Source: a bacterium (GTDB taxonomy: Bacteria > Patescibacteriota > Minisyncoccia > Phycocordibacterales > UBA12079). Taken from it: 52,615 nt of DNA. Positions 2,863 to 23,515 of this stretch are shown one piece after another (the stretch's first letter is position 1; every line of letters starts with the position of its first letter). Where the stretch lies: positions 1-52,615 of the forward strand of contig JAGYLJ010000005.1 in assembly GCA_018401295.1 (NCBI GenBank), given 5' to 3'. A model generated the notes under the pieces. The model ran no database searches and was not told the origin of the DNA. It was given only the letters and a program-made list of their open reading frames with translations. Position numbers and translations under genes: made by a program.

Positions 2863-3363
2863 CAAATCGCAAAAAAACAAAAGCAACAGTTTAAAAACTG
2901 TTGCTTTTGTTTTTTAAAAGAGCAAACTGCTTTGCTCTTTGACGATTTGTGCGGGCACAGGCATATTTTTGCGACCCACAGGGAGCAAAAAAGCCGAGGA
3001 GGGGATAAAAAACAAACTGCTTTGTTTTTTATCCAGTTTTTCTGAAAGAAAAAATTTCCTATATCGAGCGAAGCGAGATAGGAAATAGGTGGGTCAACAA
3101 ACACTTAGATATTTTTGAGTCCGGAGGACAAAAAAAATATTTAGTGATTTGTGTGCGATTCCTACTGGGGGGCACAAATTGAGCAAAGCGAAATTTGGGA
3201 CCCCAGAACGAGCCAACTGCTTGGCTCGTGTTAGAAATCGAAAGCCGGAAGATGTTGCAAACAAGGAGCAACACTGAGGCGGGGTCGCGGAACACTTAGT
3301 AAGATTTTCGAGCCTGCCTGCCGATAGGCGAGGCAAAGCGGAATATATTTAGTGATTTGTGAC
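2863..3363 (+). repeat. tRNA-linked structured elements (about 2 units) behind tRNA-Arg, with duplicated tRNA 3' end at 3156-3177
   Basis: About 100 bp (3001-3100) nearly identical to the reverse complement of 8270-8367 and similar to 23356-23460; TAGTGATTTGTG terminus at about 3142 and 3350. Confidence 0.85.
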
Positions 3364-3399
3364 CACATGATTATGTATACGAAGTATTCCATTAACCTA

Positions 3400-4001
3400 A
3401 CAAAAAAAGACCTTCCGGTCTTTTTTGTGTGTCTGTGGGCGATGAGGGATTTGGTCACAAATATTTTGCTTCGCAAAATTTCGCTACCCCGACTCGGCGA
3501 CAAGCACTCGCTTCGCTCATCTTGTATACCGCCTCCGTCTTTCAAATCCCTATCGCTCCTACAAAATCAAAAATCCCAAAGCATTCGCTTTGGGACTTAA
3601 GATTTTGTGGGCGATGAGGGATTTGGTCCCCAGTTCTAATTATTTTAGTTCGCTTCACTCCTAAAATAATAAGAACTCTTGACCTCGCTCAGTCATATTT
3701 TTCTTTCGCTTCGCTTCAGAAAAATATATTCCCTCGGTTCAAATCCCTATCGCTCCTACAAAATCAAAAATCCCAAAGCATTCGCTTTGGGACTTAAGAT
3801 TTTGTGGGCGATGAGGGATTTGGTCCCCAGTTCTAATTATTTTAGTTCGCTTCACTCCTAAAATAATAAGAACTCTTGACCTCGCTCAGTCATATTTTTC
3901 TTTCGCTTCGCTTCAGAAAAATATATTCCCTCGGTTCAAATCCCTATCGCTCCTACAAAATCAAAAATCCCAAAGCATTCGCTTTGGGACTTAAGATTTT
4001 G
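3400..4001 (-). repeat. tRNA-Val-linked tandem array: two 197-bp units plus one divergent 172-bp unit, each ending in the tRNA 3' end
   Basis: GTGGGCGATGAGGGATTTG starts at 3435, 3607, 3804 and 4001 (the tRNA itself). Confidence 0.92.
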
Positions 4002-4074
4002 TGGGCGATGAGGGATTTGAACCCCCGACCTTCGCAGTGTAAATGCGCTGCTCTACCAACTGAGCTAATCGCCC
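4002..4074 (-). tRNA. tRNA-Val(TAC)
   Basis: Reverse complement GGGCGATTAGCTCAGTTGGTAGAGC..CGCA-TTTACAC-TGCG..GGTTCAAATCCCTCATCGCCCA. Confidence 0.95.
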
Positions 4075-4243
4075 AAGTATAATTTTACTTGGTATTGTGT
4101 ATTTAATTTTCAATTCTCTGTAAAGCGCATTTACACTTAAGTGTAAATGATAGAAACTCCACCGTTTCTATCTCCGTCAACTGAGCTAATCGCCCTTTTG
4201 TGTCCATAATTATATAGAAAAAACTAATCAAAATCAATCTAAT

Positions 4244-4834
4244 TTACAAAACAAAAATCAAGATCACAATAATCACAAAGACTACAAGAATCCAATTAAA
4301 ATATTCAAAAGCATTCTTCGCCACTTTTTTACCGAACAATTTAACAATATAACCCACAGCGAAAAATCTCAACCCCCTCCCTATCAAAGAGGCTAATAGA
4401 AATGTAAAGATATTTATATTGAAAAAACCCGCAGAGATAGTAAAAACCTTAAAAGGAATAGGAGTAAAGGCTGAAATAAAAATTGTCCAAAAGGCATTCT
4501 GAGAAAACATCTGAGAAACTGTTAACATCTGACTTTGTAAATTATAAGTATTCACAATAAACTCACCCACCAAACTAAAAAAGAAAAAACCTATCAAATA
4601 ACCAAACAATCCACCAACAACAGAAGCAACAGTAGTAATAAGAGAATAATATACCCACCTAGCTCCATTTTTTATCAAAATTGCCAAAAGGAAAACATCT
4701 GGTGGAATTACGAAAAAAGAAGCCTCTGTGAAAGAACAAATAATCAACCAAATTTTAGCCCTTCTCCCTTGAGATTTATTATCGACCCAGTCTTCAGTCC
4801 TCTCTTTTATTTTTTGTAAAAAATTTAAAATCAT
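4244..4834 (-). CDS. YqaA/DedA (VTT domain) membrane protein
   Basis: FTEASFFVIPPDVFL, FTPIPFKVFTISAG, GRGLRF motifs; several TM helices. Confidence 0.88.
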   Translation of the reverse strand: MILNFLQKIKERTEDWVDNKSQGRRAKIWLIICSFTEASFFVIPPDVFLLAILIKNGARWVYYSLITTVASVVGGLFGYLIGFFFFSLVGEFIVNTYNLQSQMLTVSQMFSQNAFWTIFISAFTPIPFKVFTISAGFFNINIFTFLLASLIGRGLRFFAVGYIVKLFGKKVAKNAFEYFNWILVVFVIIVILIFVL

Positions 4835-4839
4835 ATTAA

Positions 4840-5223
4840 TTATATTTTTCTTTTTTTATCTAGGTAACTTGTCAAAATAAGAGCTGCCGCCGACGCATCT
4901 ATTTTATCACTTTTACCTTGAATCCGCTCAGCTTCAGCACTAGTTAAGAATTCTGGTTCTAAGTGAACTATTAAATTATTTCTTTCTAAATCTGTTTTAA
5001 ATCTTAAAATATCTTTCATAATAAAATTAGGCTCTCCAGAAAAATTAAACGATTCTCCGAGAACCACAACTTCAATTTTTTCCTCAAGACAAATTTTCAG
5101 AATACTTTCCAAAAGTTGTTTACCATTATGCAAAACAGTTTTAGCAAAAGCTAAGTTCCCACCATCATCCGAGACAGCAATTCCTACGTTCTTTTCTCCA
5201 TAATCTATACCTAAATATTTCAT
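4840..5223 (-). CDS. ruvX: YqgF/RuvX pre-16S rRNA nuclease
   Basis: YLGIDYGEKNVGIAVSD, E.LTSAEA, IDASAAALIL. Confidence 0.92.
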   Translation of the reverse strand: MKYLGIDYGEKNVGIAVSDDGGNLAFAKTVLHNGKQLLESILKICLEEKIEVVVLGESFNFSGEPNFIMKDILRFKTDLERNNLIVHLEPEFLTSAEAERIQGKSDKIDASAAALILTSYLDKKRKI

Positions 5224-5227
5224 ATAA

Positions 5228-5623
5228 TTAGTCTAATCGATGTCTCGATTTATTCCCTGTTTTCTCTTCATAAACCTTATTAAACAATTTTTCACCTAAA
5301 TAAGAACCTTGATACTCCTTATTCTTAATGCTTTTCACTATCTCATAAAATTTAGTAAGTTCATTCTTTATTTCTCCATTATCAGCCTTAATCAAAAATT
5401 CTTCTAAGCTCATATCATATAATCGATTTTTTATAGCCTCTAAAGCTATATTCTCAGAGTAAAGATAGCCAAGAAAATACAAAATTGCCCTAGCGCGATA
5501 GACTTCATCTTCCGTGCATCCTTTGTTCTCAATAATATGTATATATTTACTCCACAGGTTTTCAATGGCTTGTGATAATTTTTCTAAATCAAACCTATAT
5601 GTGTATATCAAAATTTCTTCCAT
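5228..5623 (-). CDS. hypothetical protein
   Basis: 131-aa ORF overlapping the upstream gene and in operon-like arrangement with ruvX. Confidence 0.65.
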   Translation of the reverse strand: MEEILIYTYRFDLEKLSQAIENLWSKYIHIIENKGCTEDEVYRARAILYFLGYLYSENIALEAIKNRLYDMSLEEFLIKADNGEIKNELTKFYEIVKSIKNKEYQGSYLGEKLFNKVYEEKTGNKSRHRLD

Positions 5624-5901
5624 ATTTTTTTATCGAAATCTACTTCAATAAAGTCTCCTGTTTCAAGTTGTGAAGTAACTTTTGCTTGCCCCATGATTAA
5701 AGGGATATTATTTTCTCTAGAAATAATAGCAGCGTGACATAATAAATTATTTATCTCAGTAATAATTCCAGAGGTTCTTGATAAAATAATTTGTACATCT
5801 GGAGTCGTATTTTTAACCACAAGAGTATCACCGGTTTCAAAGCCAACTAAATCCTCATCCTTCCACAATCTTTTTTTAATAACAAACACTCTTTTTTTCA
5901 T
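5608..5901 (-). CDS. stand-alone PEP-utilizing enzyme mobile (phospho-His swivel) domain protein
   Basis: GDTLVVKNTTPD..SGIITE..LCHAAIISRENNIP..L.TGD.IEVD. Confidence 0.8.
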   Translation of the reverse strand: MKKRVFVIKKRLWKDEDLVGFETGDTLVVKNTTPDVQIILSRTSGIITEINNLLCHAAIISRENNIPLIMGQAKVTSQLETGDFIEVDFDKKIWKKF

Positions 5902-5965
5902 AGAATTAAAAAGAAAACTCTCGCTTCTTTGTGCTATTATAGCACATTAAAGCGAGAGTCCCTGC

Positions 5966-6301
5966 TCAATAATAATCGGCCAGTTGGGATAATAAATCAA
6001 CGAAATCCCATTTATTACCACCACTACGACAACCCTTTTCAATCATTTCTTTCCTCATATCCAAATTCTGCGAAGTAGAAATAACAACCTGAGATATTTT
6101 CAACAAGTCAGAGATAAAAGGAATTGTCGATTTCTCCCCCAACCATCCATCCAGAGCGACAGCGAAGAACTTATGATTAGAGGAAATCACAGCTCTTAAC
6201 TCATCTTCAGAACGAGCTACAATAATTTCTGCTTTTTTCCCCAACCGATGAGTAATAAGTTGCTCCCAACGAGCAATGTCTTCCACAATAAGAACCTCCA
6301 C
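5966..6301 (-). CDS. single-domain response-regulator receiver-like protein
   Basis: VLIVED, VALDG, ISTS, G..K pattern of CheY-like receivers; GTG at 6301 follows GAAAGGGGG. Confidence 0.6.
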   Translation of the reverse strand: MEVLIVEDIARWEQLITHRLGKKAEIIVARSEDELRAVISSNHKFFAVALDGWLGEKSTIPFISDLLKISQVVISTSQNLDMRKEMIEKGCRSGGNKWDFVDLLSQLADYY

Positions 6302-6384
6302 TTGAAACACCCCCTTTCAGGATAAAATTAAAAAAGGACTTCTCCTAAAAAGATTTATAACACAATTCTTAAAAAAATCAATTT

Positions 6385-7623
6385 CTAGAAGACCAACAAA
6401 CTTGGAGCAAAAAGAAGTAAAGCACCAAGTATTATCATTAAAATCCCTCCAATTAAAGACGATAAATTAGAGTACTTTTGTCCTACTGCGTAAAACTTAC
6501 TAAAACCGTAAAGGGCTAAACCGAAAATTAAAAAATCGTCAAACATATACGAGAAAGTATATAGAAGTATATAAAGTTGTTCTGTAACCAAACTCAAGCC
6601 ATTTAACTCCAAGATTTTAGTAAAAGCCTGAGGTATTCCAATTGAACAAGCAAACTCAACAACATTCACAGATAAAGCTACCCCGATAACTCCTAAAGCC
6701 GTCAAAATCGTCATCGGTCTATTAATAAGTTTTTTTATTTTTGATTCTGTTTTTGATTGTTTTTCTATATCGGTATTACAAACCAATTCCCCACGTGTCT
6801 TCCAGTATCTATAAAGAAAATAAAAACCTGCTCCAAGAGCCAGTAAACCGATTAACGGGGTTATAAATTCGTCCAAACCAATAAAATCCCACGTTTTAAA
6901 CCAAAAATTCAAGATCAACCAATACATTATGGTCTCTGCTAAAATAAACAAACCAGCCACCTGAAACATCTTTTTTCTATCTTTAACCTGCCATAGAATT
7001 AGTAGAAAGGTCATCAAAACCCACATAGCACAAGGATTAAAACCATCCACCAAACCTAAGATAAACGACAGTGAAAACAAAGAAAAATCTTTCGAATCAA
7101 CTACTCCTAAAAATGGGATGTTAAAATCAAAACCTTTCTGCGGGTCTTTAATAGCTCCTGATTTCGATTGTTCTATCAACCTAATTATTTCCTGACCTGT
7201 TGTTTCAGGAGAATCAAAACCTTGAAAAATATTCTCCCCAATTATAGTGGTTGGAGTAACTTTTGGTAGATTGTATTTGTTGGTCAATAAATCAAATTGT
7301 TGTCTGTTTCCTTCCTGAGCGATATCAACAATAATTAAATTAAAATCATCTCTCTGAGTAATTAAATCCTCAAAAAAAGCCATTTCTTTTGCACAAAAAG
7401 AACAGTCTTCTCTTTCAAAAAAATAAATGTCTACTTTCTCAACTGTGTTTGCTGCTATGGTCTCAGGATCAATAGGTGTTTCAGCTATAGAAACAAGGGG
7501 TATGGCACAGGCAACCGCCAAAGTTAAAATTAAAAAATTCCTTTTTAAAAGGTTGTACCCCATTAAAAATTTATTTTCATTTTTACTCGATTTTATAATA
7601 TTATACTTTAACGGGGTAAACAT
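6385..7623 (-). CDS. glutaredoxin/thioredoxin domain fused to DsbD/CcdA-like membrane domain
   Basis: CSFC motif, then LGLVDGFNPCAMW and VEFACS membrane Cys motifs; true start may be about 7563. Confidence 0.8.
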   Translation of the reverse strand: MFTPLKYNIIKSSKNENKFLMGYNLLKRNFLILTLAVACAIPLVSIAETPIDPETIAANTVEKVDIYFFEREDCSFCAKEMAFFEDLITQRDDFNLIIVDIAQEGNRQQFDLLTNKYNLPKVTPTTIIGENIFQGFDSPETTGQEIIRLIEQSKSGAIKDPQKGFDFNIPFLGVVDSKDFSLFSLSFILGLVDGFNPCAMWVLMTFLLILWQVKDRKKMFQVAGLFILAETIMYWLILNFWFKTWDFIGLDEFITPLIGLLALGAGFYFLYRYWKTRGELVCNTDIEKQSKTESKIKKLINRPMTILTALGVIGVALSVNVVEFACSIGIPQAFTKILELNGLSLVTEQLYILLYTFSYMFDDFLIFGLALYGFSKFYAVGQKYSNLSSLIGGILMIILGALLLFAPSLLVF

Positions 7624-7710
7624 AGTCTTCTTATAATATCACTATTGTATTAAATAATAAACTTGTTAAAATTAAGGGTAACAATTAGCAATTAAAATTA
7701 ATTAAAAAAT

Positions 7711-7944
7711 ATGGATCTTTTAACATCAACAACTACAACAACATTAGGTAGCATTGACCCCACAACTATTCCTCTCTGGATATTGCTGGTTATTATGCTC
7801 TGGGTCTTGCCATGGAAAGGGTATGCTCTTTGGCATGCAGCTCAAAATAAACACAAAAATTGGTTTATAATTTTATTAGTCATCAATACATTAGCAATTT
7901 TAGACATCATCTATATTTTCTTTGTTAGTAAAAAGAAAAAATAA
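7711..7944 (+). CDS. small membrane protein (DUF5652-like)
   Basis: LW..PWKGYALWHAAQN.HKNWFIILLVINTL.IL.IIYIF pattern. Confidence 0.75.
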   Translation: MDLLTSTTTTTLGSIDPTTIPLWILLVIMLWVLPWKGYALWHAAQNKHKNWFIILLVINTLAILDIIYIFFVSKKKK

Positions 7945-7959
7945 AACAATAATCTCAAA

Positions 7960-8465
7960 ATGACACAAAACAGTGCTTAAGCACTGTTTTGTTTTGGTCA
8001 AGCGGAGGGGGTGGGATTCGGTCACTCTTATGGATATTTTATTTCGCAAGCTCATAAAATATCTCATCCCATTGACCTCCACTCGCTCGAGTTCGTCGTC
8101 GCAAGCTCTTCCTCACATACTCGCTCGGTTCGAATCCCTTACTCTCTTCTAGAAGTTAACAAAAATAAATACCTCAGTCGGTATTTATTTTTGTTAATGC
8201 GGAGGGGGTGGGATTCGGTCACAAATCACTAAGTATATTTTTTCGCTTCGCTCAAAATCTACTAAGTGTTTGCGTCCTCCTATTTCCTATCTCGCTTCGC
8301 TCGATAAAGGAAATTTTTTCTTTCAGAAAAACTGGATAAAAAACAAAGCAGTTTGTTTTTTATCCCCGACTCCCTCGCTTCGCTCAGTCCGTCTTTCGAA
8401 TTCCACCCCCTCATCAAAATGTTTGAAATTAAAATACCCCTTAAGGGGTATTTTAATTTCAAATG
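7960..8465 (-). repeat. tRNA-Ser-linked array of two structured elements with duplicated tRNA 3' ends
   Basis: GCGGAGGGGGTGGGATTCG at 8002, 8199 and 8465; AT-rich hairpins at about 7961, 8156 and 8422. Confidence 0.88.
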
Positions 8466-8552
8466 CGGAGGGGGTGGGATTCGAACCCACGGTACAGTTT
8501 CCCGCACTCCAGTTTTCAAGACTGGCGCATTCGACCTCTCTGCCACCCCTCC
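8466..8552 (-). tRNA. tRNA-Ser(TGA)
   Basis: Reverse complement GGAGGGG acceptor, CCAGT-CTTGAAA-ACTGG anticodon arm, long variable arm, GGTTCGAATCC. Confidence 0.95.
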
Positions 8553-8554
8553 AA

Positions 8555-8911
8555 TTAATATTCAATTATCAACAAATCTTTTTCTTGTAAACTTACAGAC
8601 CGACGCCTACATAAACACGTCTTAAATAAATATTCATCACGATTCTTACTCAAAACATAAAGCCAATCATAAGAATCTTCTTCTGTTTTTTTGATAACAT
8701 AGCCCTTTGAATTAGAGTGGATCCTTCTCAAATCAACTTCATTCCCGCTAGTATATTTTACTTGGACTCTTTTTAATTCGTTTCCAACATCAACAACCAA
8801 ATCATAAGAAGCAGACTCCGTTAGAGGTAACAAAACATCCCATCCTAATTTAGTAAAAGTAGATATAGCTTGTGCAACAGCAATATCTCCTTTCCTTTGT
8901 GTTGTTCTCAT
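8555..8911 (-). CDS. group I intron-associated-type PD-(D/E)XK endonuclease (I-Ssp6803I-like)
   Basis: T..KGDIA......F.KLGW.V..P......YDLVVD....LKRVQVK signature. Confidence 0.75.
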   Translation of the reverse strand: MRTTQRKGDIAVAQAISTFTKLGWDVLLPLTESASYDLVVDVGNELKRVQVKYTSGNEVDLRRIHSNSKGYVIKKTEEDSYDWLYVLSKNRDEYLFKTCLCRRRSVSLQEKDLLIIEY

Positions 8912-9340
8912 CTTTCTATTATAAACGGTATAGGCAACCGTTGCAACATATAATTAAAAGATAATAATTATTATACCAAAATAAACACTAAAAATCTACT
9001 GATTATTTCATCATTTTAACAATCCCCTAGGATAAAATTCCAAAACTTGTATTATAATGTAAGATGTAAGATTAATTAATAAAAAATCATGTTATTAGAA
9101 CAAGAGACATCAAACATATTTTTTCTGAAGAAGCTCAACAAAATATGTCTAATTTAGATAAACAAATTCTAATTAAAAAAGCCGAAGCGACCGCTTTACT
9201 AAAATTACAAGGAAAGACCAATAATTAAAGCCAAAATTCTAAATAAACCTCTCTTTGCTTTAATTCCGATAAGAGTTTATACTTAAATAAATGGGTTAAA
9301 ACCTAAATTATTAATTGTTACCAACTAAAAAAATAAAATT

Positions 9341-10057: not shown

Positions 10058-10111
10058 TTTTAGACAAAAAATAAAATAATCAAATAAAAATCTCTTCGGT
10101 GGAAGAGATTT

Positions 10112-10387: not shown

Positions 10388-10452
10388 AAAATTAAAATAA
10401 TTATACAGCAAAACCCCGTCTTGCCCACCTTAGACAAGTCGGGGTTTTTGAC

Positions 10453-13646: not shown

Positions 13647-13664
13647 AATAATTCACCAGTCCTA

Positions 13665-13840
13665 TAGACAACGGACGGAAAAGCCGTTCGCCTGATCGTT
13701 TGGGTTGCGGTTGACAGTAGAGTTGCTAGAGTTCAGGTTGCGTTTCCAAGCATTAGCCCCTGAGATAGAAGACGACCAAAAGTTCGCGTTCGTACCCAAA
13801 TTGTTGAAAGACCCATCGGTATTGCGGTTGCCGGAAAGAA
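13665..13840 (-). repeat. DGR template repeat (TR)
   Basis: 176-bp ungapped match to 14439-14614; AAC-rich in the target frame; all 20 mismatches are A in TR. Confidence 0.97.
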
Positions 13841-14428: not shown

Positions 14429-14429
14429 T

Positions 14430-15932
14430 TCAGTTCTTTAGACAACGGACGGAAAAGCCGCTCGCCTGATCGCCTGGGAAGCGGTGGACAGTAGAGTAGC
14501 TAGAGTACAGGTAGCGTTCCCAAGCACTAGCCCCTGAGATAGAAGACGACCAAAAGACCGCGTACGTACCCAAACCGTCGAAAGACCCACCGGTACTGCG
14601 GTAGCCGGAAAGAAGACCTTCAAAACCTGAGGAACCCCCCGTTTTTAAAGCTGTTCCTGCAGGATCACAGTCCCATACCCCTGAACGGCTTGTGTCACAA
14701 GTCCCTGTTGATAAATATTGATCAAGAGTGTCCTGTTCTGCGTCTGTAGGAATATGCCAACCAGCAGGGCAAATTCCTTGAGCTCCTGCTGTTTCAACAT
14801 ATTGCATCGCTTCATCCCAATTGTAGAAACCGCCGTAAGTAGTACAGTTAGCATCACTGTTGTCATAACACCACTTTTCTATTGTTCCGTTGTTAGTCGG
14901 TTCGGTAGCTCCTGAGGCTAATTTTGTTCCGATGTTTAAGTTTTCAGAGAACCAACACTGTGCCCCTATTTGGACAGTTGCGTAACTTTGCCCTCCATGA
15001 CGAATTGTTTTTCCACAACCTGTTTCTTCCACAATCCAGTTACTTCCATCACAATAGGTTATGGCACTGGCCCCTTCATCCCAACCTAATTGGTTTTCTA
15101 TCCCAGCTGTACAAGTTGTTCCGTCTGGCCACAATTCTGTTTTACTGGTTCCTGAAGCAGCGTCTACATAAGCTTTGGTAGCTACGTGGTCATCGGCTGT
15201 AGGAGTATCAGCAATGATATTTCCATTAATTTCTAATTTAGCGATTGGCGTAGTCGTCCCCACCCCCACATTCCCACTTGTATCAATAGTCATCTTAGAA
15301 GTCCCATTAGTAATAAATCTTAAGTCTGTATTAGTGTAGGTACCTATGAGACCTTGGGAGGTTCCTGACCAGATACCTGTGGTAATAGAGTTAGTGACAT
15401 CTGTGACTTTGAGAGCTTGTTGTCCTGTACCTGATAGTTCTAAGAGAGCTGAAGGAGTGGAGGTACCTACTCCGATGTTGCCTATGTTGTAATAGATATC
15501 AGAAGAGCCACTCCATTTACCCATATCTCCTACAGCATCAATCAGAGTACCGTCAGGTAATTGGAAACCTTCTGTGGAATAGATTTTACCTACTACTGAT
15601 AGCTTCTGTACTGGAGTGGTAGTGCCTACTCCGACATTCCCTGTGTTGTAATAGAGGTTATCTCCTAGTTTAGTCCAGAGGGTAGCTAAAGCTGTAATGA
15701 TGTATTCTAGTCTTTCTATGAGACTACCGTCATTGTTAGCTGTAACGGTGGAAGAATCAAAGTCATTGTCTGCATTGTTAGCTCCGAGGATGTTTTGTGG
15801 GAAGTCTTGATTGGAAGAAGCTGGACCCACTGTGGGTTCGATGAAGGCAGCTTGGGTGGTATTAGTAACTACAATGATTAACATCATTGTAGTTAGTAAT
15901 ATCACTGTTAAATTTCCTAATCCTTTGTGCAT
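14430..15932 (-). CDS. DGR target: secreted GNVG(I/V)GT-repeat protein with C-terminal Fibrobacter major paralogous (C-type-lectin-fold) domain
   Basis: Signal peptide; YATVQIGAQCWFSENL, YGGFYNW, GICPAGWHIPT..E, FWSSS, GFSVRCLKN. Confidence 0.93.
   Translation of the reverse strand: MHKGLGNLTVILLTTMMLIIVVTNTTQAAFIEPTVGPASSNQDFPQNILGANNADNDFDSSTVTANNDGSLIERLEYIITALATLWTKLGDNLYYNTGNVGVGTTTPVQKLSVVGKIYSTEGFQLPDGTLIDAVGDMGKWSGSSDIYYNIGNIGVGTSTPSALLELSGTGQQALKVTDVTNSITTGIWSGTSQGLIGTYTNTDLRFITNGTSKMTIDTSGNVGVGTTTPIAKLEINGNIIADTPTADDHVATKAYVDAASGTSKTELWPDGTTCTAGIENQLGWDEGASAITYCDGSNWIVEETGCGKTIRHGGQSYATVQIGAQCWFSENLNIGTKLASGATEPTNNGTIEKWCYDNSDANCTTYGGFYNWDEAMQYVETAGAQGICPAGWHIPTDAEQDTLDQYLSTGTCDTSRSGVWDCDPAGTALKTGGSSGFEGLLSGYRSTGGSFDGLGTYAVFWSSSISGASAWERYLYSSYSTVHRFPGDQASGFSVRCLKN
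14439..14614 (-). repeat. DGR variable repeat (VR)
   Basis: 3' end of target gene; differs from TR only at TR adenines. Confidence 0.97.
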
Positions 15933-16168: not shown

Positions 16169-17143
16169 CTATTTACTTAAAACCCTCACATCCAAAATCC
16201 TAGCCAAGGACTCTATCTCCCCTGTTCGTGAAAATGTTGGTGTGCCTAAATAACAATTTTCTTTAAGTAAAACAGCGGCTCCACCAGAGTTGCCTTTTTC
16301 CACCTTAGCTGAAGTGATAAAATAATCGGAATCAAAACCTGCAATAATTCCCTCTGTCACCGTCACATTTTTTTGGTCACCAATACTAGGATAACCTAAA
16401 ATAACCAACTCATCTCCTAAATTAGGATTGTTTGTACATAATAATGGGGAATTTTTTACAAGAGTCTTCACATATTCACTAGGAAAATCTATAGTAACAA
16501 TTCCCCAATCAAAACCTCCATCTAAGACAGAAATATTATTAGAGACAATAAAAACATCTTTCTGTGGAAATTTAACAATACAATTATTAGCAACAGTATT
16601 ATTATTTGAAGATATATCAGAAATAACATGTTTATTTGTTAAAACAGTAATCGAATCCCCTTCCCATTTAACCAGTAAACCTGACCCATTGGACTGTAGA
16701 ACTAATTCCCCTGTATTAGGATGATAGGAACGACATTCTAAAGAAACAACATAGGGGCCCCACTGATTAACAACACTCGTTAATTCAATTTTTTCAGTCT
16801 CTGCAATTTTTTCCTCTAAACTTAAAATCTGTTTTTGAGCTAATACTTTTTCGTCAGTTTGACTTTCCTCAAAGGAAATTCTCTTTTCTCTTTCTGAAAG
16901 TAAATCTGACTCTAGCTTTGACAAACCTTCTTCGTTTACTTTTTGTAGTTGTTTAACTTCTGAGTTAATTTCATCTAATTTATCTGACTGTTTAGCAATT
17001 AAATTATTTATCAATAAAAAATTAGTCTTTATTTCCCGTAATTGATTAAATCCGAACCAAACTGACAGCAAAACAACCAAAAATAGCAATATTAATAATT
17101 GAGTGACCTGTTTCTTTTTAATTTTAAAATTTAAATTTAACAC
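16169..17143 (-). CDS. membrane-anchored trypsin-like serine protease with coiled-coil stalk
   Basis: GSG, VLTNKHVI (His), DWGIV (Asp), LGYP, GNSGG (Ser). Confidence 0.85.
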   Translation of the reverse strand: MLNLNFKIKKKQVTQLLILLFLVVLLSVWFGFNQLREIKTNFLLINNLIAKQSDKLDEINSEVKQLQKVNEEGLSKLESDLLSEREKRISFEESQTDEKVLAQKQILSLEEKIAETEKIELTSVVNQWGPYVVSLECRSYHPNTGELVLQSNGSGLLVKWEGDSITVLTNKHVISDISSNNNTVANNCIVKFPQKDVFIVSNNISVLDGGFDWGIVTIDFPSEYVKTLVKNSPLLCTNNPNLGDELVILGYPSIGDQKNVTVTEGIIAGFDSDYFITSAKVEKGNSGGAAVLLKENCYLGTPTFSRTGEIESLARILDVRVLSK

Positions 17144-17215
17144 TACTTATATTATATGATATATAAAAAAATCACGAAACTAATTTTTATTTTCGTGATT
17201 TTTTAATGTAATTTG

Positions 17216-17476
17216 TTAAATATTTTTAATCGCCCTTGCTAAACGAGATTTCTTTCTCGCCGCGGTATTTTTTTTAATCACTCCTCTCTTAGCTGCTTTA
17301 TCTATTGCTTTGTAAGCTGAAGACAAATTATTCATAGCTTCCTCCTTGTTTTTACCAAGGACAAGTTTATCAATAGTTTTAATTGAGTCCTTCATAACTC
17401 TCTTACGACGCAAGTTAAAAACCATCTTCCTCTGAGAACCTCTTAAAGCTTTTTTAGCTGATTTAATTACTGGCAT
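17216..17476 (-). CDS. rpsT: 30S ribosomal protein S20
   Basis: MPVIKSAKKALR..AYKAIDKAAKRGVIKKNTAARKKSRL. Confidence 0.96.
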   Translation of the reverse strand: MPVIKSAKKALRGSQRKMVFNLRRKRVMKDSIKTIDKLVLGKNKEEAMNNLSSAYKAIDKAAKRGVIKKNTAARKKSRLARAIKNI

Positions 17477-17551
17477 ATGCAAAGAGATTACTATATTTTA
17501 TAAAAAAAAGCAATAAGAAAGGCGGTCCAGAGGACCGCCCTTAAGTAAAAA

Positions 17552-17941
17552 TTATTCATAGGTCTTCACCAAAAGAGGATCTCTATAGCCACACCTCTTA
17601 CCCTTCAAACGACCAGTTGCATCGGCCTCACAGAGCCTTTTATAAAAAAATTCTGCTTTTGTGTGGTTATCAAACCAGAAGTAAAAGCGCTTCTTAGAGA
17701 ACCATCCCTGAAAGAGACATTCGACTGAATACTGCCCAATTTTCTCTCTAAGATATTTTAAGAGAAAAGAATTGTCTTGATGACCTGTCCTTAAAATAAT
17801 CTGATCGGAATACCAAGAGAGAAAAAATTTTCCTTCTTCCCCATCCACGAGAACTTTCCCCGAAACTCTCTTCTTTTGTTTATTCACATTAACAGAAAAA
17901 AACAAATCTCCCAAAAAATCATCGGCGTATTTCTCAAACAT
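17552..17941 (-). CDS. orphan hypothetical protein with strong SD and own terminator
   Basis: 129-aa ORF; AAGGAGG upstream; GGCGGTCC hairpin at about 17519-17542. Confidence 0.7.
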   Translation of the reverse strand: MFEKYADDFLGDLFFSVNVNKQKKRVSGKVLVDGEEGKFFLSWYSDQIILRTGHQDNSFLLKYLREKIGQYSVECLFQGWFSKKRFYFWFDNHTKAEFFYKRLCEADATGRLKGKRCGYRDPLLVKTYE

Positions 17942-18038
17942 TAGTTTTCCTCCTTATAATTAGAGATTAACCATATAAAAAAGAGCGACAAAACTTTTAT
18001 ACTTTCTACTTTTCCTTTTTTAATCTATACTTATTTAT

Positions 18039-18608
18039 ATGATTAGTCAATTAACAGGACAAATTAGTTATAAAAGTGATAACTACACTATCCTAAACGT
18101 TTCGGGGATTGGTTATAAAGTCTTTGTTACAATAGAGATATTACAGGAATTACAATCAAATAAACCAGAGGATAAAATAACACTCTGGACTCACCTAGCT
18201 GTTAGAGAAAATTCTCTTGACCTATATGGTTTCCTAAACAAAACAGACTTAAACTTTTTTGAAATGCTCATTACTATCTCGGGAATAGGTCCTAAAACAG
18301 CTCTAGGAATTTTAAATGTAGCCACAGTAGATACTTTAATTTCTGCTATTTCTTCCAAGGATACAAGCTACCTGACAAAGGTATCCGGTATTGGCCAAAA
18401 AAATGCTGAAAAAATAATATTAGAACTAAAAAATAAAATAACCGATATTGAGAGCAATAATCCAAACAACCAAGATGACATTGATGTTATTGATGCCTTA
18501 AAAGCGTTAGGTTATTCTGGAAGAGACGCTATGGAAGCTCTCAAAAAAATACCTAAGACAATCACAGATGTTGGTGGTAAAATTAAAGAAGCTATCAAAT
18601 TTCTCTAA
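18039..18608 (+). CDS. ruvA: Holliday junction branch migration protein RuvA
   Basis: MISQLTG, GIGYKV, HLAVRE..LDLYGF, ISGIGPKTAL, GIG.K.AEKIILELK, ALKALGY. Confidence 0.96.
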   Translation: MISQLTGQISYKSDNYTILNVSGIGYKVFVTIEILQELQSNKPEDKITLWTHLAVRENSLDLYGFLNKTDLNFFEMLITISGIGPKTALGILNVATVDTLISAISSKDTSYLTKVSGIGQKNAEKIILELKNKITDIESNNPNNQDDIDVIDALKALGYSGRDAMEALKKIPKTITDVGGKIKEAIKFL

Positions 18609-18668
18609 AGAAACTATATAGTTTCTTTAAAGAAACTTGAATTAAAAATGATAAATTAAAAATTAAAA

Positions 18669-19022
18669 ATGACTGAAAAAGATAATTTGATACAAAAGAA
18701 AAGTTTTGATTTTGCTCTAAAAATTATTTCTTTATACAAAGAGCTTATTGAACAGAAAGAATATATAATATCTAAACAGTTAATTAGGAGCGGGACAAGT
18801 ATCGGGGCGAATATAGAGGAGTCTCTCGGAGGTCAAAGTAAAAAAGATTTTGTCCACAAGATGACAATATCTTTGAAGGAATCGCGAGAGACTAGATATT
18901 GGTTGAATTTGTTAAAAGAAAGTAATCTAGTTAATATAAATATTGATAGATATCTAGTTGAAATTAACGAAATAATATGTATTTTAACAAAAATAATAAA
19001 AACATCGTTAAAAAATTTATAA
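18669..19022 (+). CDS. four-helix bundle protein (23S rRNA IVP / TIGR02436-like)
   Basis: KSFDFALKII..ISKQLIRSGTSIGANIEE...QSKKDF..K..I.LKE.RET.YWL. Confidence 0.9.
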   Translation: MTEKDNLIQKKSFDFALKIISLYKELIEQKEYIISKQLIRSGTSIGANIEESLGGQSKKDFVHKMTISLKESRETRYWLNLLKESNLVNINIDRYLVEINEIICILTKIIKTSLKNL

Positions 19023-19058
19023 TCTTTCATTTTTAATTTTTAATTTTTAATTCCATTT

Positions 19059-20324
19059 ATGGATAATATTTTATTTAAAATAAAAAAAATAATCCCCATT
19101 AAGTTATTCAAAAAACTTCAACCTTTTTATCATTATTTTCTTTCTTTATTAGGAGCTATAATCTATCGCTTCCCTTCCAGAAAAATCTTTGTCATTGGAG
19201 TTACAGGTACCAAAGGTAAAACTAGCACCACAGAATTGGTCAGTACAATCTTAGAAACTGCGGGCTATAAAACGGCATTAGCTGGAACTTTACGATTTAA
19301 GATTGGTGACCAAACCGAAAATAATAAATTTAAAATGACTATGCCGGGAAGATTTTTCCTGCAAAAATTCTTAAGAAAGGCTGTTCGAGAAAAATGTGAT
19401 TTTGTGATATTAGAAATGACTTCTGAGGGAACTAAACAATTTAGACATAAGTTTACTCAATTAAATTCATTGATTTTTACAAATTTAAGTCCTGAACACA
19501 TTGAATCTCACGGCTCCTACGAAAAATACCGCGAAGCAAAACTAAAAATAGTTAAAGCCTTAGAACACTCCCCTAAAAAAAGAAAAACCATTGTTGTAAA
19601 CAAAGACGACAAGGAGAGTCATTACTTTCTAGACAATAAAATAAAAGAGCAATACCAATATTCTCTCACAGATGCAGAACCTTTCGAGTTAAAAAAGTCT
19701 GGTTTATCAATGACTTTCGATGGAGAAAAAATAAATTCTTGTCTATCTGGGCAGTTTAATATCTATAATATTTTAGCAGCAATTAGTTTTGTGAAAAGTC
19801 AAAATGTCGGAATAAAAACAATTAAAGAAGCAATCGAAAATTTTAAGGGTATTCGTGGACGAGTAGAAAGAATTGAAGAAGGACAAGACTTCACTGTGGT
19901 CGTTGATTATGCTCACACAGCCGATTCATTAGAAAAAGTTTACGAAGCCTTCCCAAACTCAAAAAGAATTTGTGTTCTAGGGAACACAGGAGGAGGACGA
20001 GACAAATGGAAAAGAAAAGTTATGGGTTCTATTGCTGATAAATATTGTTCAGAAATTATTTTAACTAACGAAGACCCTTATGACGAAGACCCAAAAAAAA
20101 TTGTAGAGGATATTGCAGAAGGGATTGAAAAACCAATTTATGAAATAATTATGGACAGAAAAGAAGCCATTCAAAAAGCTATTTCGTCAGCTCAAACAGG
20201 AGATACTGTTTTAATTACTGGTAAGGGCACCGATCCATACATCATGGGTCCAAATAACTCCAAATTGGAGTGGGATGATGCTACAATAGTAAGAGAAATT
20301 ATTATTAACTCACTTAAAAAATAA
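19059..20324 (+). CDS. murE: UDP-N-acetylmuramoyl-tripeptide synthetase MurE
   Basis: IGVTGTKGKTST, FTNLSPEH, VVVDYAHT, GGGRDK.KR, TNEDP, GKG. Confidence 0.9.
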   Translation: MDNILFKIKKIIPIKLFKKLQPFYHYFLSLLGAIIYRFPSRKIFVIGVTGTKGKTSTTELVSTILETAGYKTALAGTLRFKIGDQTENNKFKMTMPGRFFLQKFLRKAVREKCDFVILEMTSEGTKQFRHKFTQLNSLIFTNLSPEHIESHGSYEKYREAKLKIVKALEHSPKKRKTIVVNKDDKESHYFLDNKIKEQYQYSLTDAEPFELKKSGLSMTFDGEKINSCLSGQFNIYNILAAISFVKSQNVGIKTIKEAIENFKGIRGRVERIEEGQDFTVVVDYAHTADSLEKVYEAFPNSKRICVLGNTGGGRDKWKRKVMGSIADKYCSEIILTNEDPYDEDPKKIVEDIAEGIEKPIYEIIMDRKEAIQKAISSAQTGDTVLITGKGTDPYIMGPNNSKLEWDDATIVREIIINSLKK

Positions 20325-20326
20325 AA

Positions 20327-21298
20327 ATGGATGAAGGAGCAAAAGGAATATTATGGGTCTTCGTCGGGGTCGGTCTGATTTGGTTGTTTTTAGGTGGACC
20401 AGGGAGGATGGCAGAAAAAACTGGAATCTTTATTAAACCACCCTCACCAATAGACACTGGCGAAACCTATGGGCAAATATCTTTTTGGGAATCTTTCAAA
20501 AATAATAAAGAAGTAGAGCCTTCTCAAAACCTAACAGACCAAGAAAAAGTAGCTATAGAATTGGAGAGAGTAAAAAAAGAAACCGAGGAGTTACAAAAAA
20601 CTCTAATAGAACTTGAGATAGAACAAAATACCTCACCTTATAATAAAAAAGTAAGTATTAGAAGAAGCTTGGGCTCACAAACAGACGTTAATCAAGAGTA
20701 TATAGAATTAAGCGTTAATCTCCCGGCAGGGGAAAAAGTTTTAATATCTGATTGGTCTCTGAAGAGCGAAATGACGGGCACGGAAATTAAAATAGGAAAT
20801 GCCACTAAACTGCCATATACCTCACAAATAAACAAAGAGTTCCCTATTTTTGCATCAGGAGGAGATAAAATAATTATTACAACAGGGAGATCTCCTATCG
20901 GGGTTTCTTTCCAAATAAATAAATGTTCAGGTTATTTAGAGCAATTTCAAGATTTCAAACCTTCTCTAGATAAAAATTGTCCCCTTGTAAAAGACGAAAA
21001 TTTACCTGTCTATGGTCCTAACTCTTTTAATGATGATTGTTGGAACTATATAGATAGAATTTCCCGTTGCGAAACCCCCCTTGTCTTTCCTTTAGATATG
21101 CAATACGAATGTCGTTCTTATCTAACAACAGAAGTTAATTACAACGCCTGTGTAAATAAATATAAAAATGAGAATAATTTTTACCAACCAGAGTGGAGAG
21201 TCTTTTTTGGTCGCGTTACTGAACTATGGAAAAAAGAAAGAGAAGTCATAAAACTTCTCGATGCCCAAAACAAAGTTGTTGATGTTTATTCATATTAG
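20327..21298 (+). CDS. membrane-anchored hypothetical protein (lamin-tail-like beta domain, Cys-rich)
   Basis: N-terminal TM; EYIEL..ISDWSLK..W....E.IKLLD...KVVD pattern. Confidence 0.65.
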   Translation: MDEGAKGILWVFVGVGLIWLFLGGPGRMAEKTGIFIKPPSPIDTGETYGQISFWESFKNNKEVEPSQNLTDQEKVAIELERVKKETEELQKTLIELEIEQNTSPYNKKVSIRRSLGSQTDVNQEYIELSVNLPAGEKVLISDWSLKSEMTGTEIKIGNATKLPYTSQINKEFPIFASGGDKIIITTGRSPIGVSFQINKCSGYLEQFQDFKPSLDKNCPLVKDENLPVYGPNSFNDDCWNYIDRISRCETPLVFPLDMQYECRSYLTTEVNYNACVNKYKNENNFYQPEWRVFFGRVTELWKKEREVIKLLDAQNKVVDVYSY

Positions 21299-21473
21299 TA
21301 AAATTTTTAATTTCGTAATTTTTCCACCCAAGCCTACCTGCTGATAGGCAGGACGAATCAACCTCGGGCTAACAATTTTTAAATAATTTTTAATGATTAA
21401 ATGTTCAATAAAAAAAGTGGTTCTTGCAAAGCAAGAACCACTTTTGACATAAAGTCATGGGTTTCTTCTTTCT

Positions 21474-21872
21474 TCAATAGGGGACTTCTTCGATAGAAAT
21501 AGGAAGAATTTCAGTGGCTGTGATCAAATCAGCGTGTTCTCTCAATGCTTTAGCTCTTCTGTTGAGATACTTCGCTATTCGCGGGCCTTCGTTGATTAGA
21601 AATTGTTCATATTTATGAGCTGTATCGCAACAGCAACCCCAAACGATTTCTTTTCCGCCGACGTTAAGCGTCCACACAGTACTGTCCCAATGAATATAAC
21701 TATCTGGATCAACCTTTTGTTTTTTCTGAATATCTTCAAGTTCTCCCTCTTCCCAATTCTGTGATTCATCCACAGAGAAGTAAGTTCTTCCACAAGCACA
21801 AACACGGATTTGCCCTCCGCCATGTGAGTCAAACACATCTCCAAACAACTTGGAACACTGTTCTTTTTCCAT
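21474..21872 (-). CDS. orphan Cys-rich hypothetical protein with perfect SD
   Basis: CACGR and GCCC motifs; AAAGGAGGTGAT upstream; terminator hairpin at about 21412-21444. Confidence 0.7.
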   Translation of the reverse strand: MEKEQCSKLFGDVFDSHGGGQIRVCACGRTYFSVDESQNWEEGELEDIQKKQKVDPDSYIHWDSTVWTLNVGGKEIVWGCCCDTAHKYEQFLINEGPRIAKYLNRRAKALREHADLITATEILPISIEEVPY

Positions 21873-21982
21873 AAAATCACCTCCTTTCTTTGTTTAATTT
21901 AAGAACGACAAATCTATAAACAAACTAACATAAATAAAAAAGAACGTCCATCAAAAAAAGTGATAGCCACCCTTTTTTCTTC

Positions 21983-22459
21983 TTAGAGATCCAACATCCT
22001 AAACAAAGCCACTCCGGTAGCTACAGACACATTGAGAGATTCTTTTTGCCCCTGCATAGGAATTTCCGCAATGATATCACACTGTTTCAACAAACTTTCA
22101 GAAATACCTTCCACTTCATTACCCAAAATAAAAGCGGTAGAATTTTTAATTTTTACCTTTTTATAATCAACGGAATTTTTTACTTGTTCAATACCAATAA
22201 TAGTAATGCCTTCTTTTTGTAACTTCTCGATTATTTCCTCTGGTTGTGAAAAATATTCCCAAGCCACATGTTTTTCCGCCCCCAATGCTACTTTGGTTAT
22301 GGCAGACACTTCTCTCCCAAATCTATCAATAGGTGTGGGTGTATAACCAGTCAAAAAAATCTTGGAAATACCACAAGCATCCGCGGTTCTGAAAATAGAC
22401 CCGACATTATAGGTACTTCTAATATTATGTAAAATTAAAAAAGTCTTCATATCTTTCAT
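21983..22459 (-). CDS. TrmH/SpoU-family RNA methyltransferase
   Basis: HNIRS.YNVGSIFRTADA, LGNEVEGI, IPMQG.KESLNVSVA. Confidence 0.93.
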   Translation of the reverse strand: MKDMKTFLILHNIRSTYNVGSIFRTADACGISKIFLTGYTPTPIDRFGREVSAITKVALGAEKHVAWEYFSQPEEIIEKLQKEGITIIGIEQVKNSVDYKKVKIKNSTAFILGNEVEGISESLLKQCDIIAEIPMQGQKESLNVSVATGVALFRMLDL

Positions 22460-22478
22460 ATTATGTTATAATACACTC

Positions 22479-22868
22479 ATGAATATACTAAATCCACTAC
22501 CAGATCTTCTTTCTTTTGCTTCTTTTGCTCCCCTTCTTCTACGTTTGGTCATTGGTTTTTATTTCTTAGAACAATTTTCCACTATAATCAATACTAAATA
22601 TATCAGTAAAGTTGATATAAAAATTAAGAGTATTTTTAAATATATTATTGGAATTAAAACTATAGCCACTATAGCTTTAATCATTGGATTTTATACACAA
22701 ATAGCTGTTTTAATTTTGATCACACTAACAATAATAGATATAATTTTGGAGAAAAAAGCGCATGAAATTAAAAAAACAAAGATACAACTTTACGCCTTTG
22801 TTCTAGTTATTTTACTTTCTCTCCTTTTCACAGGAGCAGGCTTCTTCTCAATAGATTTACCTCTTTAG
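22479..22868 (+). CDS. DoxX-like membrane protein
   Basis: APLLLRLVIG..LIIGFYTQIA..LLFTGAGFFSIDLPL. Confidence 0.8.
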   Translation: MNILNPLPDLLSFASFAPLLLRLVIGFYFLEQFSTIINTKYISKVDIKIKSIFKYIIGIKTIATIALIIGFYTQIAVLILITLTIIDIILEKKAHEIKKTKIQLYAFVLVILLSLLFTGAGFFSIDLPL

Positions 22869-22936
22869 CTTTCTCATAAACTGGACTTTTCTTCATTTTT
22901 TGTTATTATTTCTTTTGTATTTAAGTAAGTACTAAA

Positions 22937-23009
22937 CCGCTCGTAGCTCAGCCGGTAGAGCAGCAGCCTTTTAAGCTGACGGTCGCAGGTTCGATCCCTG
23001 CCGAGCGGA
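22937..23009 (+). tRNA. tRNA-Lys(TTT)
   Basis: CCGCTCG/CGAGCGG acceptor, CAGC-CTTTTAA-GCTG anticodon arm, GGTTCGATCCC. Confidence 0.93.
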
Positions 23010-23515
23010 CATTTTTATTTATATCTTTGAGCGAAATAGCGAAGACGGTGGAGATGAAAGCGACGTCTAGGAGCTTTCATGGCTTTTAAGCTGACGGTCG
23101 CAGGTTTGATTTCTCATAAAAGCCAATTGCTTGGCTTTTATGAGAAATCAAAAAGCTTTTGAGATATTTTTGATCCTGAGCTTGCCGAAGGAGAAAAAAA
23201 TATCCAAAAGGTATACTGTTCTGTAAGAAAGATCCCTGCCGAGCGGACAAATGTAGCGAAGCGGAATTTGTCCGCTTGGAGAAAGCCAACTGCTTGGTTT
23301 TCGTCAGGGAGCGAAAGCCGGAATATGTTGCGACTAAAAGGAGCAACAATGAGGCGGGGATAAAAAAACAAACTGCTTTGTTTTTTATCCAATTTTTGCG
23401 AAGCAAAAAATTTCCCATAGCGAGCGAAGCGAGTTGGTAAATAGGAGGACGCAAAAACTTATGGTTTTGAAGCCCACAGGGCGAACAAAATCATTAGTGA
23501 TTTGTGTACGATCCA
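23010..23515 (+). repeat. tRNA-Lys-linked structured elements, including a split copy of the tRNA 3' half
   Basis: tRNA fragments at 23083-23106 and 23231-23249; blocks shared with 3001-3100 and 3240-3285; TAGTGATTTGTG at about 23496. Confidence 0.85.

Follow-up and report, generated by a model that had tools for sequence, protein, structure and literature searches.

Cassettes behind the tRNA genes of the window

The 52,615-nt contig JAGYLJ010000005.1 (assembly GCA_018401295.1), analyzed at its full length and called the window hereafter, belongs to a patescibacterial genome (G000; 619 kb in 27 contigs, 77% complete) and harbors six tRNA genes as called with ARAGORN and Rfam. Behind the genes for tRNA-Arg(tct), tRNA-Val(tac), tRNA-Ser(tga) and tRNA-Lys(ttt) lie non-coding units of approximately 100-300 nt, here called cassettes, which are summarized in Table 1. 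In this study we demonstrate their anatomy, their linkage to tRNA and transfer-messenger RNA (tmRNA) genes, their class-wide spread, the strand-specific covariation of their core, and their turnover between the source genome and its congeners G001, G002 and G003; a further relative, G009, is a complete genome of 752,630 bp.

A first-pass annotation of the window, made from the sequence alone, had described the units as one tandemly stacking family associated with tRNA genes, a description that our results bear out, and every junction, terminus and shared block that it had listed was found again at its position. The conserved terminus TAGTGATTTGTG(TG/AC/TA) is immediately followed by a copy of the tRNA 3' end beginning at T-loop C56. 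By direct reading, the border lies between ...TAGTGATTTGTGTG and CGATTCC on the plus strand (3155/3156), between ...ATATTTGTGAC and CAAATCCC on the minus strand (3454/3453), between ...TAGTGATTTGTGAC and CGAATCC on the minus strand (8218/8217), and between ...TAGTGATTTGTGTA and CGATCC at 23508/23509. The shared block of about 100 nt was confirmed in two pairs, 2996-3092 with 8276-8372 (96% complementary over 97 nt) and 8263-8361 with 23363-23461 (88% over 99 nt), and the block GAAAG-N-CGGA...GAG-N'-CGGGG occurs 10 times in G000 with N and N' complementary. On the Val side, two 197-nt units that had escaped the annotation (V1 and V2) are 100% identical across their whole period.

Perfect 18-nt copies of the tRNA 3' end were found downstream of the Val (three), Ser (two) and Lys (one) genes of the window, and behind 7 of the 31 real tRNA genes of G000 (35 ARAGORN calls minus four pseudo-calls within a Thr repeat array). 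Inverted copies with up to four mismatches lie downstream of six tRNA genes in that genome. The recurrence of an exact 18-mer within 2.5 kb is not a matter of chance.

Table 1. tRNA genes, cassettes and associated tRNA-end copies in the window (R1, covariance model described in the text).
Feature	Position	Strand	Call or R1 match	Parts and remarks
tRNA-Arg(tct)	2791-2863	+	ARAGORN + Rfam	T-loop C56 at 2845; 3' segment D0, 2845-2863
Cassette A1, trailer-type subfamily	2864-3155	+	R1 3078-3164	Trailer CACAAATCG; terminator hairpin ~2879-2915; hairpin GAGCAAACTGCTTTGCTC 2920-2937; inverted trailer copy CGATTTGTGC 2943-2952; three-hairpin module insert 2996-3092; terminus TTAGTGATTTGTGTG 3141-3155
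Cassette A2	3156-3364	+	R1 3237-3372, 96.6 bits	Direct tRNA-end copy 3156-3175 (Arg-gcg type); spacer hairpin 3176-3196; inverted acceptor copy 3197-3206; hairpin 3207-3231; inverted T-arm copy 3232-3240; core; bare terminus 3350-3363, no tRNA copy behind
Last direct tRNA-Val-end copy (3453 to 3435) and bidirectional terminator-like hairpin	3404-3453	-		Hairpin AAAAAAGACCGGAAGGTCTTTTTTT (minus-strand reading), common to the convergent Arg and Val arrays
Cassette V3, type-1 short core	3454-3625	-	R1 3445-3546	
Cassette V2, type-2 core	3626-3822	-	R1 3617-3721	Terminator 3795-3768
Cassette V1	3823-4019	-	R1 3814-3918	Begins with 19 nt (4019 to 4001) that belong to the working tRNA-Val as its 3' end; terminator 3992-3965
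tRNA-Val(tac)	4001-4074	-	ARAGORN + Rfam	
Last direct tRNA-Ser-end copy	8002-8020	-		Followed by terminator 7992-7965
Cassette S2, type-2 core	8021-8217	-	Direct reading	
Cassette S1	8218-8483	-	R1 8209-8327	tRNA-Ser 3' end (8483 to 8465); terminator 8463-8422; inverted copy GATGAGGGGGTGGAATTCGAA; core with module insert 8276-8372; terminus at 8218
tRNA-Ser(tga)	8465-8552	-	ARAGORN + Rfam	
tRNA-Lys(ttt)	22937-23010	+	ARAGORN + Rfam	
Degenerate unit L1	23011-23230	+	Direct reading	Partial tRNA-Lys copy, anticodon loop to T loop (~23083-23110)
Cassette L2	23231-23508	+	R1 23310-23398 and 23434-23517	Direct copy 23231-23248; spacer; inverted copy; hairpin; core with module insert 23363-23461; terminus 23494-23508; followed by 6-nt tRNA-end copy CGATCC, 23509-23514

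Anatomy of the cassette

From the units read (10 in G000, 12 in G009 and 30 class-wide), the cassette is best read as five parts: a direct copy of the tRNA 3' end from C56 (D), a hairpin that is in many cases a terminator, an inverted copy (I), a core, and a terminus ...TTGTGAC. The tRNA-end copy that the first-pass annotation had taken to be fused to the terminus makes more sense as the opening part of the cassette that follows. Behind a tRNA gene the order is the trailer, usually starting with CACAAA, then the hairpin, the inverted copy, helix P2, GGGG, an optional three-hairpin module, helix P4, and the next D. The direct copy varies in length from 6 to more than 30 nt. The inverted copy of the tRNA 3' half, which the first-pass annotation had not noted, ends in ...TCGAA, carries a recurrent extra A in its arm, and in some units is split by a hairpin (of the GCCAACTGCTTGGC type) exactly between the complements of the acceptor and the T stem. 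P2 has the form G-N-C GGA ... GAG G-N'-C with a tandem G.A loop, P4 that of GGTCGCGA...TTGTGACC, and the two helices together with the pairing of I and D form a three-way junction.

In the family of the source bacterium, the hairpin between tRNA and core is terminator-like and has a T run; with the tRNA end and the inverted copy it builds long palindromes, such as a near-perfect one behind tRNA-Ala with arms of about 40 nt. The region 2700-8700 contains 11 terminator-like sites, compared with 3.5 +/- 1.9 in shuffles, and copies of a tRNA end directly precede several of the 11. A second core type, found in Val V1 and V2, Ser S2 and the Ala cassettes, shares P4 and the terminus. A trailer-type subfamily, represented by 2864-3155 in the window and by Glu units in the relatives, shares them as well and ends bare; its inverted segment copies the trailer only, and it joins at the tRNA 3' end and trailer. 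The earlier claim that junctions fall in the T loop is accordingly right for most of them, which lie at position 56, and wrong for this subfamily. Units of distant genomes often consist of just a hairpin, a 9-nt inverted segment, the core and a full tRNA-end copy. Since every cassette carries direct and inverted copies specific to its tRNA, recognition of tRNA structure rather than of one sequence, as had also been proposed, is not established by these elements.

Three other readings of the units were rejected. The inverted copy is not the tRNA's own 5' strand, because a CGATT loop is matched in it by AATCG, and for tRNA-Gly it has GCGGATA where the tRNA itself has GCGGGTA; I is thus a true reverse complement of the tRNA 3' half. 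An obligatory intron of the T loop was ruled out because an intact tRNA end precedes the unit in all cases, and tRNA-primed reverse transcription because the palindrome extends into the trailer and terminator, which are missing from the mature tRNA.

Covariation and folding of the core

RNAalifold recovered P2 and P4 from an alignment of seven units (alignment A2), from which the covariance model R1 was built with both helices. Covariation was assessed on 109 R1 matches (100 distinct) from the window and 88 loci. In this alignment, which was fitted to the model and leans towards structure, 95.4% of the core cells of the distinct matches were paired as compared with 74.2% in shuffles, and the core covariation score was 0.568 against 0.188 in shuffles, none of 500 shuffles reaching the observed value; sliding the partners lowered the score to 0.05-0.08. 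The middle pair of P2 was CG in 30, GC in 26, UA in 19 and AU in 15 of the 100 distinct matches and unpaired in none, and such a four-way covarying pair without failures would be hard to obtain otherwise, even from a model-fitted alignment. One P4 pair was G.U in 75 of the same 100, and the unpaired nucleotides of the core were conserved. Because G.U pairs become A.C mismatches on the opposite strand, it is the tRNA-sense strand that folds, whether in the form of RNA or of single-stranded DNA.

The pairing of D with the inverted T-arm segment gave a different picture. Although 458 of 600 cells were paired (360 +/- 8.7 in shuffles), the mismatches comprised 32 G.U and 36 A.C, and since G.U was thus no commoner than A.C, the relation of D to I looks like a decaying inverted repeat of copied DNA rather than a selected RNA helix.

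The strong, strand-specific covariation, the conserved unpaired nucleotides and the G.U pairs that have been kept all speak for the main alternative to a mobile cassette, which we regard as possible although on the unlikely side: a structured RNA domain that has a function and is transcribed together with tRNA and tmRNA genes, as their 3' trailer. I would then pair with the tRNA's own 3' half or with a second copy, as an alternative-pairing device or a tRNA minihelix mimic, with a role in maturation, quality control or regulation, and copy number would change by unequal recombination and gene conversion rather than by transposition. The splitting of I at the acceptor/T-stem boundary in some units, which would give a tRNA-like two-helix stack, is in line with such a domain, as is the frequent lack of a terminator between tRNA and unit in distant genomes. 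The terminator with its T run between tRNA and core in the family of the source bacterium, and the D:I mismatches with no preference for G.U, argue against it.

The same core also bears on the idea that there is no element at all, and that fold-back or template-switch errors of replication at hairpin-rich tRNA ends left a core that is a nested, decayed palindrome of tRNA tails. The long near-perfect palindromes, such as that behind tRNA-Ala, are what such errors could produce; partial direct and inverted tRNA copies occur upstream of tRNAs as well, and the 5' strand of P4 (GGTCGCGAA) resembles, in our own reading, a transition-decayed tRNA tail plus trailer (GGTCACAAA). However, the helices, junction nucleotides and four-way covarying pairs of a 100-nt core have stayed the same across many families of the class, a result on which random replication errors would not converge, and variable hairpins common to different tRNA loci within a lineage point to the copying of a defined unit. 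We therefore consider this explanation very unlikely.

The first-pass annotation had proposed a covariance-model scan of related genomes and had named a match to a described Rfam family without tRNA specificity as grounds for refutation. Against Rfam 15, the cassettes of the window and of 25 loci gave no match to any family at the gathering threshold, tRNA, tmRNA, rRNA and LOOT being the only families found. At E values up to 10, the region 2700-4200 gave sub-threshold, hairpin-like matches only, with the known self-cleaving ribozymes included in the families tested.

Distribution and linkage to tRNA and tmRNA genes

A BLAST search with one unit found matches in 30 of 41 genomes, the other 18 genomes of the source bacterium's family all being among them. 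R1 matched 22 times in G000 and 19, 9, 18 and 20 times in four relatives. A scan at E <= 1e-4 and with stricter filters covered 151 genomes drawn evenly from the class (Patescibacteria, Paceibacteria-like); 52 of them had matches and 99 had none.

The matches were tightly linked to tRNA genes. In G009, 15 of the 20 lie no more than 550 nt downstream of a tRNA gene on the same strand, 11 of them at 41-92 nt; one orphan match is found 79 nt behind the tmRNA gene and another behind an unannotated tRNA-like 3' end. Among the 30 best class-wide matches, 26 follow a tRNA gene called by ARAGORN at 18-145 nt, one more a tmRNA gene and one more a tRNA gene found by Rfam (28 of 30 in all). Units stand 63-79 nt behind tmRNA at three loci (L045, L102 and L054), and more than 30 tRNA species are involved. 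The orientation is always that of the tRNA.

This constant orientation and the conservation of the core in 52 class genomes are further points for a co-transcribed RNA domain. On the other side stand the 99 genomes that gave no match under the stricter filters, and the finding that about a third of the tRNAs carry a unit, with the set differing between congeners.

Turnover between loci and species

The spacer between the Arg-tct and Val-tac genes has a length of 1137 nt in G000, 411 in G001 and 581 in G002 and holds a different set of cassettes in each; the G002 orthologue of A1 is devoid of the three-hairpin module. At the tRNA-Phe locus, G000 has one complete and a truncated second cassette and G002 a single one; G001 has no fewer than three and G003 no fewer than two, and the T loop of the gene and of all downstream copies changes together within each genome. 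The terminator after the last tRNA tail of the G003 Phe locus is unlike the cassette-borne ones and resembles that of G001, as expected if each cassette supplied a tail and terminator of its own and displaced the original ones downstream.

The segment 3156-3298 of the window lies in the Arg-tct locus and carries an Arg-gcg-type tail (CTACTGGGGG). In G001, the unit that comes after a 3' fragment of Arg-gcg matches it at approximately 88% identity, and the likeness begins at the first base and takes in the spacer, the inverted copy, the hairpin and the core. The units at Ser, Leu and Arg tRNAs of family f44 have in common a P2 hairpin that is specific to the lineage. Taken together, the spacer, the Phe locus, the cassette at two loci and the f44 hairpins make the stretch from D to GTGAC the most economical unit and point to copying between loci.

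Truncated and decayed copies occur alongside identical ones, and a single tRNA can have as many as three different cassettes in a stack behind it, both of which sit poorly with a functional RNA domain. The comparison of orthologous tRNA loci that the first-pass annotation had suggested thus revealed cassette sets that differ between congeners and no clean-bordered pair of occupied and empty sites.

Search for a partner enzyme

Almost all of the units carry no genes, and the absence of an integrase gene from the cassettes, as first reported, was corroborated. The Y1_Tnp domain was not associated with the element (30 of 52 element-positive versus 64 of 99 element-negative genomes), and in family f44 the element was present in 5 of 5 genomes and Y1_Tnp in none of the 5. 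RVT_1 was likewise not associated (16 of 52 versus 43 of 99), and a TnpB-type domain (PF07282) was not found in G000, itself 77% complete. A tyrosine recombinase was present in 147 of the 151 genomes, 37 of the 52 element-positive genomes had exactly one PF00589 match, and an additional copy was not associated with the element. That no mobilizing enzyme was found adds to the case for an RNA domain.

G000 does encode a RAYT-like Y1 transposase (C12:26480-27330 and also C25:35040; approximately 225 aa, HUH motif NHYHF), which is flanked by its own, different palindromes (TTTGGTAATCSGATTACCAAA), one of which interrupts the gene in frame. Perfect DnaA boxes (TTATCCACA) lie near this gene, which may mark an origin region. 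The 549-aa reverse transcriptase of G000 is located on another contig (C27:401-2050, L004), is fused to a C-terminal region that appears protease-like by eye only, and adjoins a DNA methyltransferase-like frame; it probably belongs to a defense locus.

Partial tRNA copies left by integration are well known, and tRNA 3'-segment direct repeats with tmRNA targeting are given as a hallmark of tyrosine-integrase elements in PMC9897764. The cassettes might on this ground be scars of phages or islands, that is, attR remnants of departed elements, and one stretch flanked by cassettes behind tRNA-Ala does hold an NYN and a NUDIX gene. Yet almost all units are without cargo, every supposed scar has the same conserved covarying core, and most hosts have the single tyrosine recombinase noted above. 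On viral contigs, a 15-letter core pattern matched 102 stretches, and the 80 loci examined included one true model match, again a bare tandem array with no integrase in view. We hold this origin to be highly improbable.

The stretch with the NYN-domain and NUDIX genes (C22:50950-52640 of G000, L029) lies between two cassettes and is bounded by 9-nt copies of a tRNA T-arm segment; it may be a cassette with cargo.

Interpretation and proposed mechanism

We favor, at an even chance, the interpretation that the units are small, non-coding, non-autonomous cassettes that target the 3' side of tRNA and tmRNA genes. An incoming cassette would bring a replacement tRNA 3' end, and the displaced original 3' end would then follow the cassette; this would explain why each cassette looks fused to a fresh tail and why cassettes stack.

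How such a cassette would move can be proposed tentatively, by analogy, and we regard the following particulars as rather doubtful. The crossover would take place where P4 meets the D:I helix. In the folded single strand, P4 and D:I may stack as a quasi-duplex that mimics the T-arm region of a tRNA gene, with P2 branching off opposite the crossover, a geometry like that of the integron attC or CTX phage attP hairpin. The recombinase would act in trans, because the cassette encodes nothing, and would perhaps be the single Xer-like tyrosine recombinase of the hosts, the only recombinase common to them. As a route of entry, the trailer-type subfamily would need the common CACAAA trailer only, and hairpin-templated correction could then extend the direct and inverted copies.

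Several points weigh against mobile cassettes. A simple cut-and-paste or integrase model leaves retargeting to a new tRNA without a chimeric tRNA unexplained, the tRNA-specific D and I are interleaved with conserved segments, and the symmetric arms within the T arm of a tRNA, at only 5 bp, poorly resemble known Xer sites. Many distant genomes have no terminator between tRNA and unit, so that the unit is probably co-transcribed, which fits an RNA role, and the model-fitted covariation alignment favors structure from the outset. The difference between G000 and G002 at the Arg-tct locus could also be due to a deletion between homologous cores, and to the left of the cassette shared by G000 and G001, 6 of 10 nt are identical, making the left border imperfectly sharp. 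Neither an excised form nor a clean-bordered empty-site pair nor a circle junction nor a transcript was seen. The 22 public runs listed included none of RNA and so say nothing on expression; contigs from four DNA runs over 2700-4200 broke at the repeats, and their few low-depth joints (other runs, 85% likeness) gave no usable empty site or circle junction.

A more radical form of mobility would place the activity in the conserved three-way junction itself: as RNA of a new catalytic or guiding kind, or as a folded DNA single strand, it would direct both the cutting and the joining at the T loop of tRNA and tmRNA, with I as a guide docking either copy of the tRNA tail. The unit would then be an intron-like, T-loop-specific mobile element free of protein genes, which we think quite unlikely in this particular form. 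That the core represents some functional or catalytic nucleic acid of a new type is nevertheless a real possibility.

If the cassettes are mobile, gene-less DNA colonizes the most conserved genes of ultra-small bacteria, in most hosts without a dedicated recombinase, as a tRNA-targeted counterpart to integron cassettes and Xer-dependent elements, and its movement would explain the differing tRNA tails, T loops and terminators of close relatives. If the units are instead a working RNA, they represent a widespread, uncatalogued class of structured RNA tied to the tRNA and tmRNA genes of Patescibacteria. Either way, they affect annotation (pseudo-tRNA calls) and assembly (contigs that break at repeats), and they matter for reading the evolution of tRNA genes in these genomes.

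Other observations

Partial tRNA copies were also met on the 5' side of tRNA genes. Upstream of tRNA-Val, at 4118-4196 on the minus strand of the window, a copy of the first 18 nt of the tRNA (GGGCGATTAGCTCAGTTG) is followed by a hairpin and then by a palindrome on the anticodon-loop sequence (CATTTACACTTAAGTGTAAATG); this arrangement means that partial and inverted copies exist on that side too. Elsewhere in G000, 5' fragments of tRNA-Glu(ctc) (C21:18186-18300, L037), tRNA-Ser(gct) (C24:10866-10995, L039) and tRNA-Thr (C1:1990-2210, L031), broken in the D loop, lie upstream of the intact genes. At least the Glu and Ser fragments are joined to the three-hairpin module seen in the window cassettes, and they may reflect a mirror-image phenomenon on the 5' side.

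Two neighbors of tRNA genes were found on the same contig C1 (L031). Four 89-nt tandem repeats behind tRNA-Thr(tgt) (C1:2214-2643), consisting of the T arm and 3' end with no core, were miscalled as tRNA-Ser(act) by ARAGORN. Directly downstream of tRNA-Leu(caa), a LAGLIDADG-type endonuclease-like frame (C1:2690-3280, L031:891-1478, minus strand; PF14528, E 3.4e-9) may be a free-standing homing endonuclease. At the Arg-gcg locus of G001 (L056, reverse strand, ~1226-1700), GC-rich hairpins spanning about 120 nt separate a different tRNA-Arg(gcg) gene from a downstream 3' fragment, from the D loop onward, of the window-type Arg-gcg gene; the arrangement has the look of one gene replaced by another through a D-loop crossover. 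A cassette at a contig end of G000 (C25:36540-36812, L026) ends 26 nt short of a start codon, and the reading frame that begins there is one that we take by eye only to be CCA-adding-enzyme-like.

A separate repeat or leader family, composed of ACCCCAGTGAAAT...ATTTCACGGGGT and a GAGCGAAGCGAA-capped hairpin, has three copies in G000 immediately upstream of start codons, one of them that of rplB (C22:2000-2100, C22:7780-7880 and C27:13000-13100). The LOOT RNA match of G000 (C24:28500-28612, L025) scored 61.7 bits. Diverged direct repeats of the window, 15253-15868 with 34781-35237 and 13657-13840 with 14431-14614 (79-88% identity over 184-256 nt), apparently lie within coding regions of paralogous genes.

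Comparison with known systems

No description of a gene-less, structured, class-wide tRNA cassette was found in Rfam 15 or in full-text searches of articles. A catalogue of integration sublocations in the T loop and in tmRNA genes is reportedly given in Williams 2002. Integrative elements of tRNA and tmRNA genes have non-autonomous derivatives, the cis-mobilizable elements (CIMEs). As in the cassettes, an element-borne 3' segment restores the gene and the displaced segment is left as a direct repeat, the tmRNA gene is also a target, and elements accrete in tandem. The tRNA 3'-segment repeat on both sides and the intact gene at one end, typical of tyrosine-integrase elements, are found in the cassettes too. 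Such elements encode their own integrase, whereas the cassettes measure 100-300 nt and hold no integrase or any other gene; unlike them, the cassettes have a folded covarying core and an inverted copy of the target, in hosts that mostly possess a single tyrosine recombinase.

Integron attC cassettes and CTX-type Xer-dependent elements use a folded single-stranded att hairpin. They resemble the cassettes in having no recombinase of their own, an imperfect inverted repeat by the crossover, tandem stacking at one site, and a strand-specific fold that appears to matter; the additional A of the inverted arm is reminiscent of the bases that are extrahelical in attC. In contrast to these systems, the target is a tRNA T loop rather than attI or dif, and the arms copy a specific tRNA. 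Unlike for integrons, no IntI-type integrase was identified for the cassettes, whose single-strand mechanism is an inference only.

MITEs (miniature inverted-repeat transposable elements) as well as repetitive extragenic palindromes with their mosaic elements (REP/BIME) are, like the cassettes, short, non-coding, hairpin-rich, modular, multi-copy and intergenic downstream of genes, whereas the cassettes are oriented and strictly linked to tRNA and tmRNA genes. MITEs have terminal inverted repeats and a target duplication of fixed length, while the cassettes have neither, their inverted copy being internal, and REP/BIME have a RAYT (Y1) partner, with whose presence the cassettes show no association. 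Derivatives of IS200/IS605 and their guide RNAs have TnpB/IscB or TnpA as partner, whereas the cassettes come without PF07282 in G000 and without a match in Rfam. Retroelements (retrons, group II introns, tRNA-primed elements) depend on a host reverse transcriptase, and RVT_1 is not associated with the cassettes.

The repeats downstream of tyrT in Escherichia coli (rtT) are 178-bp units, each containing the 3' end of tRNA-Tyr. Like the cassettes, they are tandem units behind a tRNA gene that each end in a copy of the tRNA 3' end; however, rtT is a duplication at a single locus, whereas the cassette core stands behind more than 30 tRNA species and tmRNA across the class.

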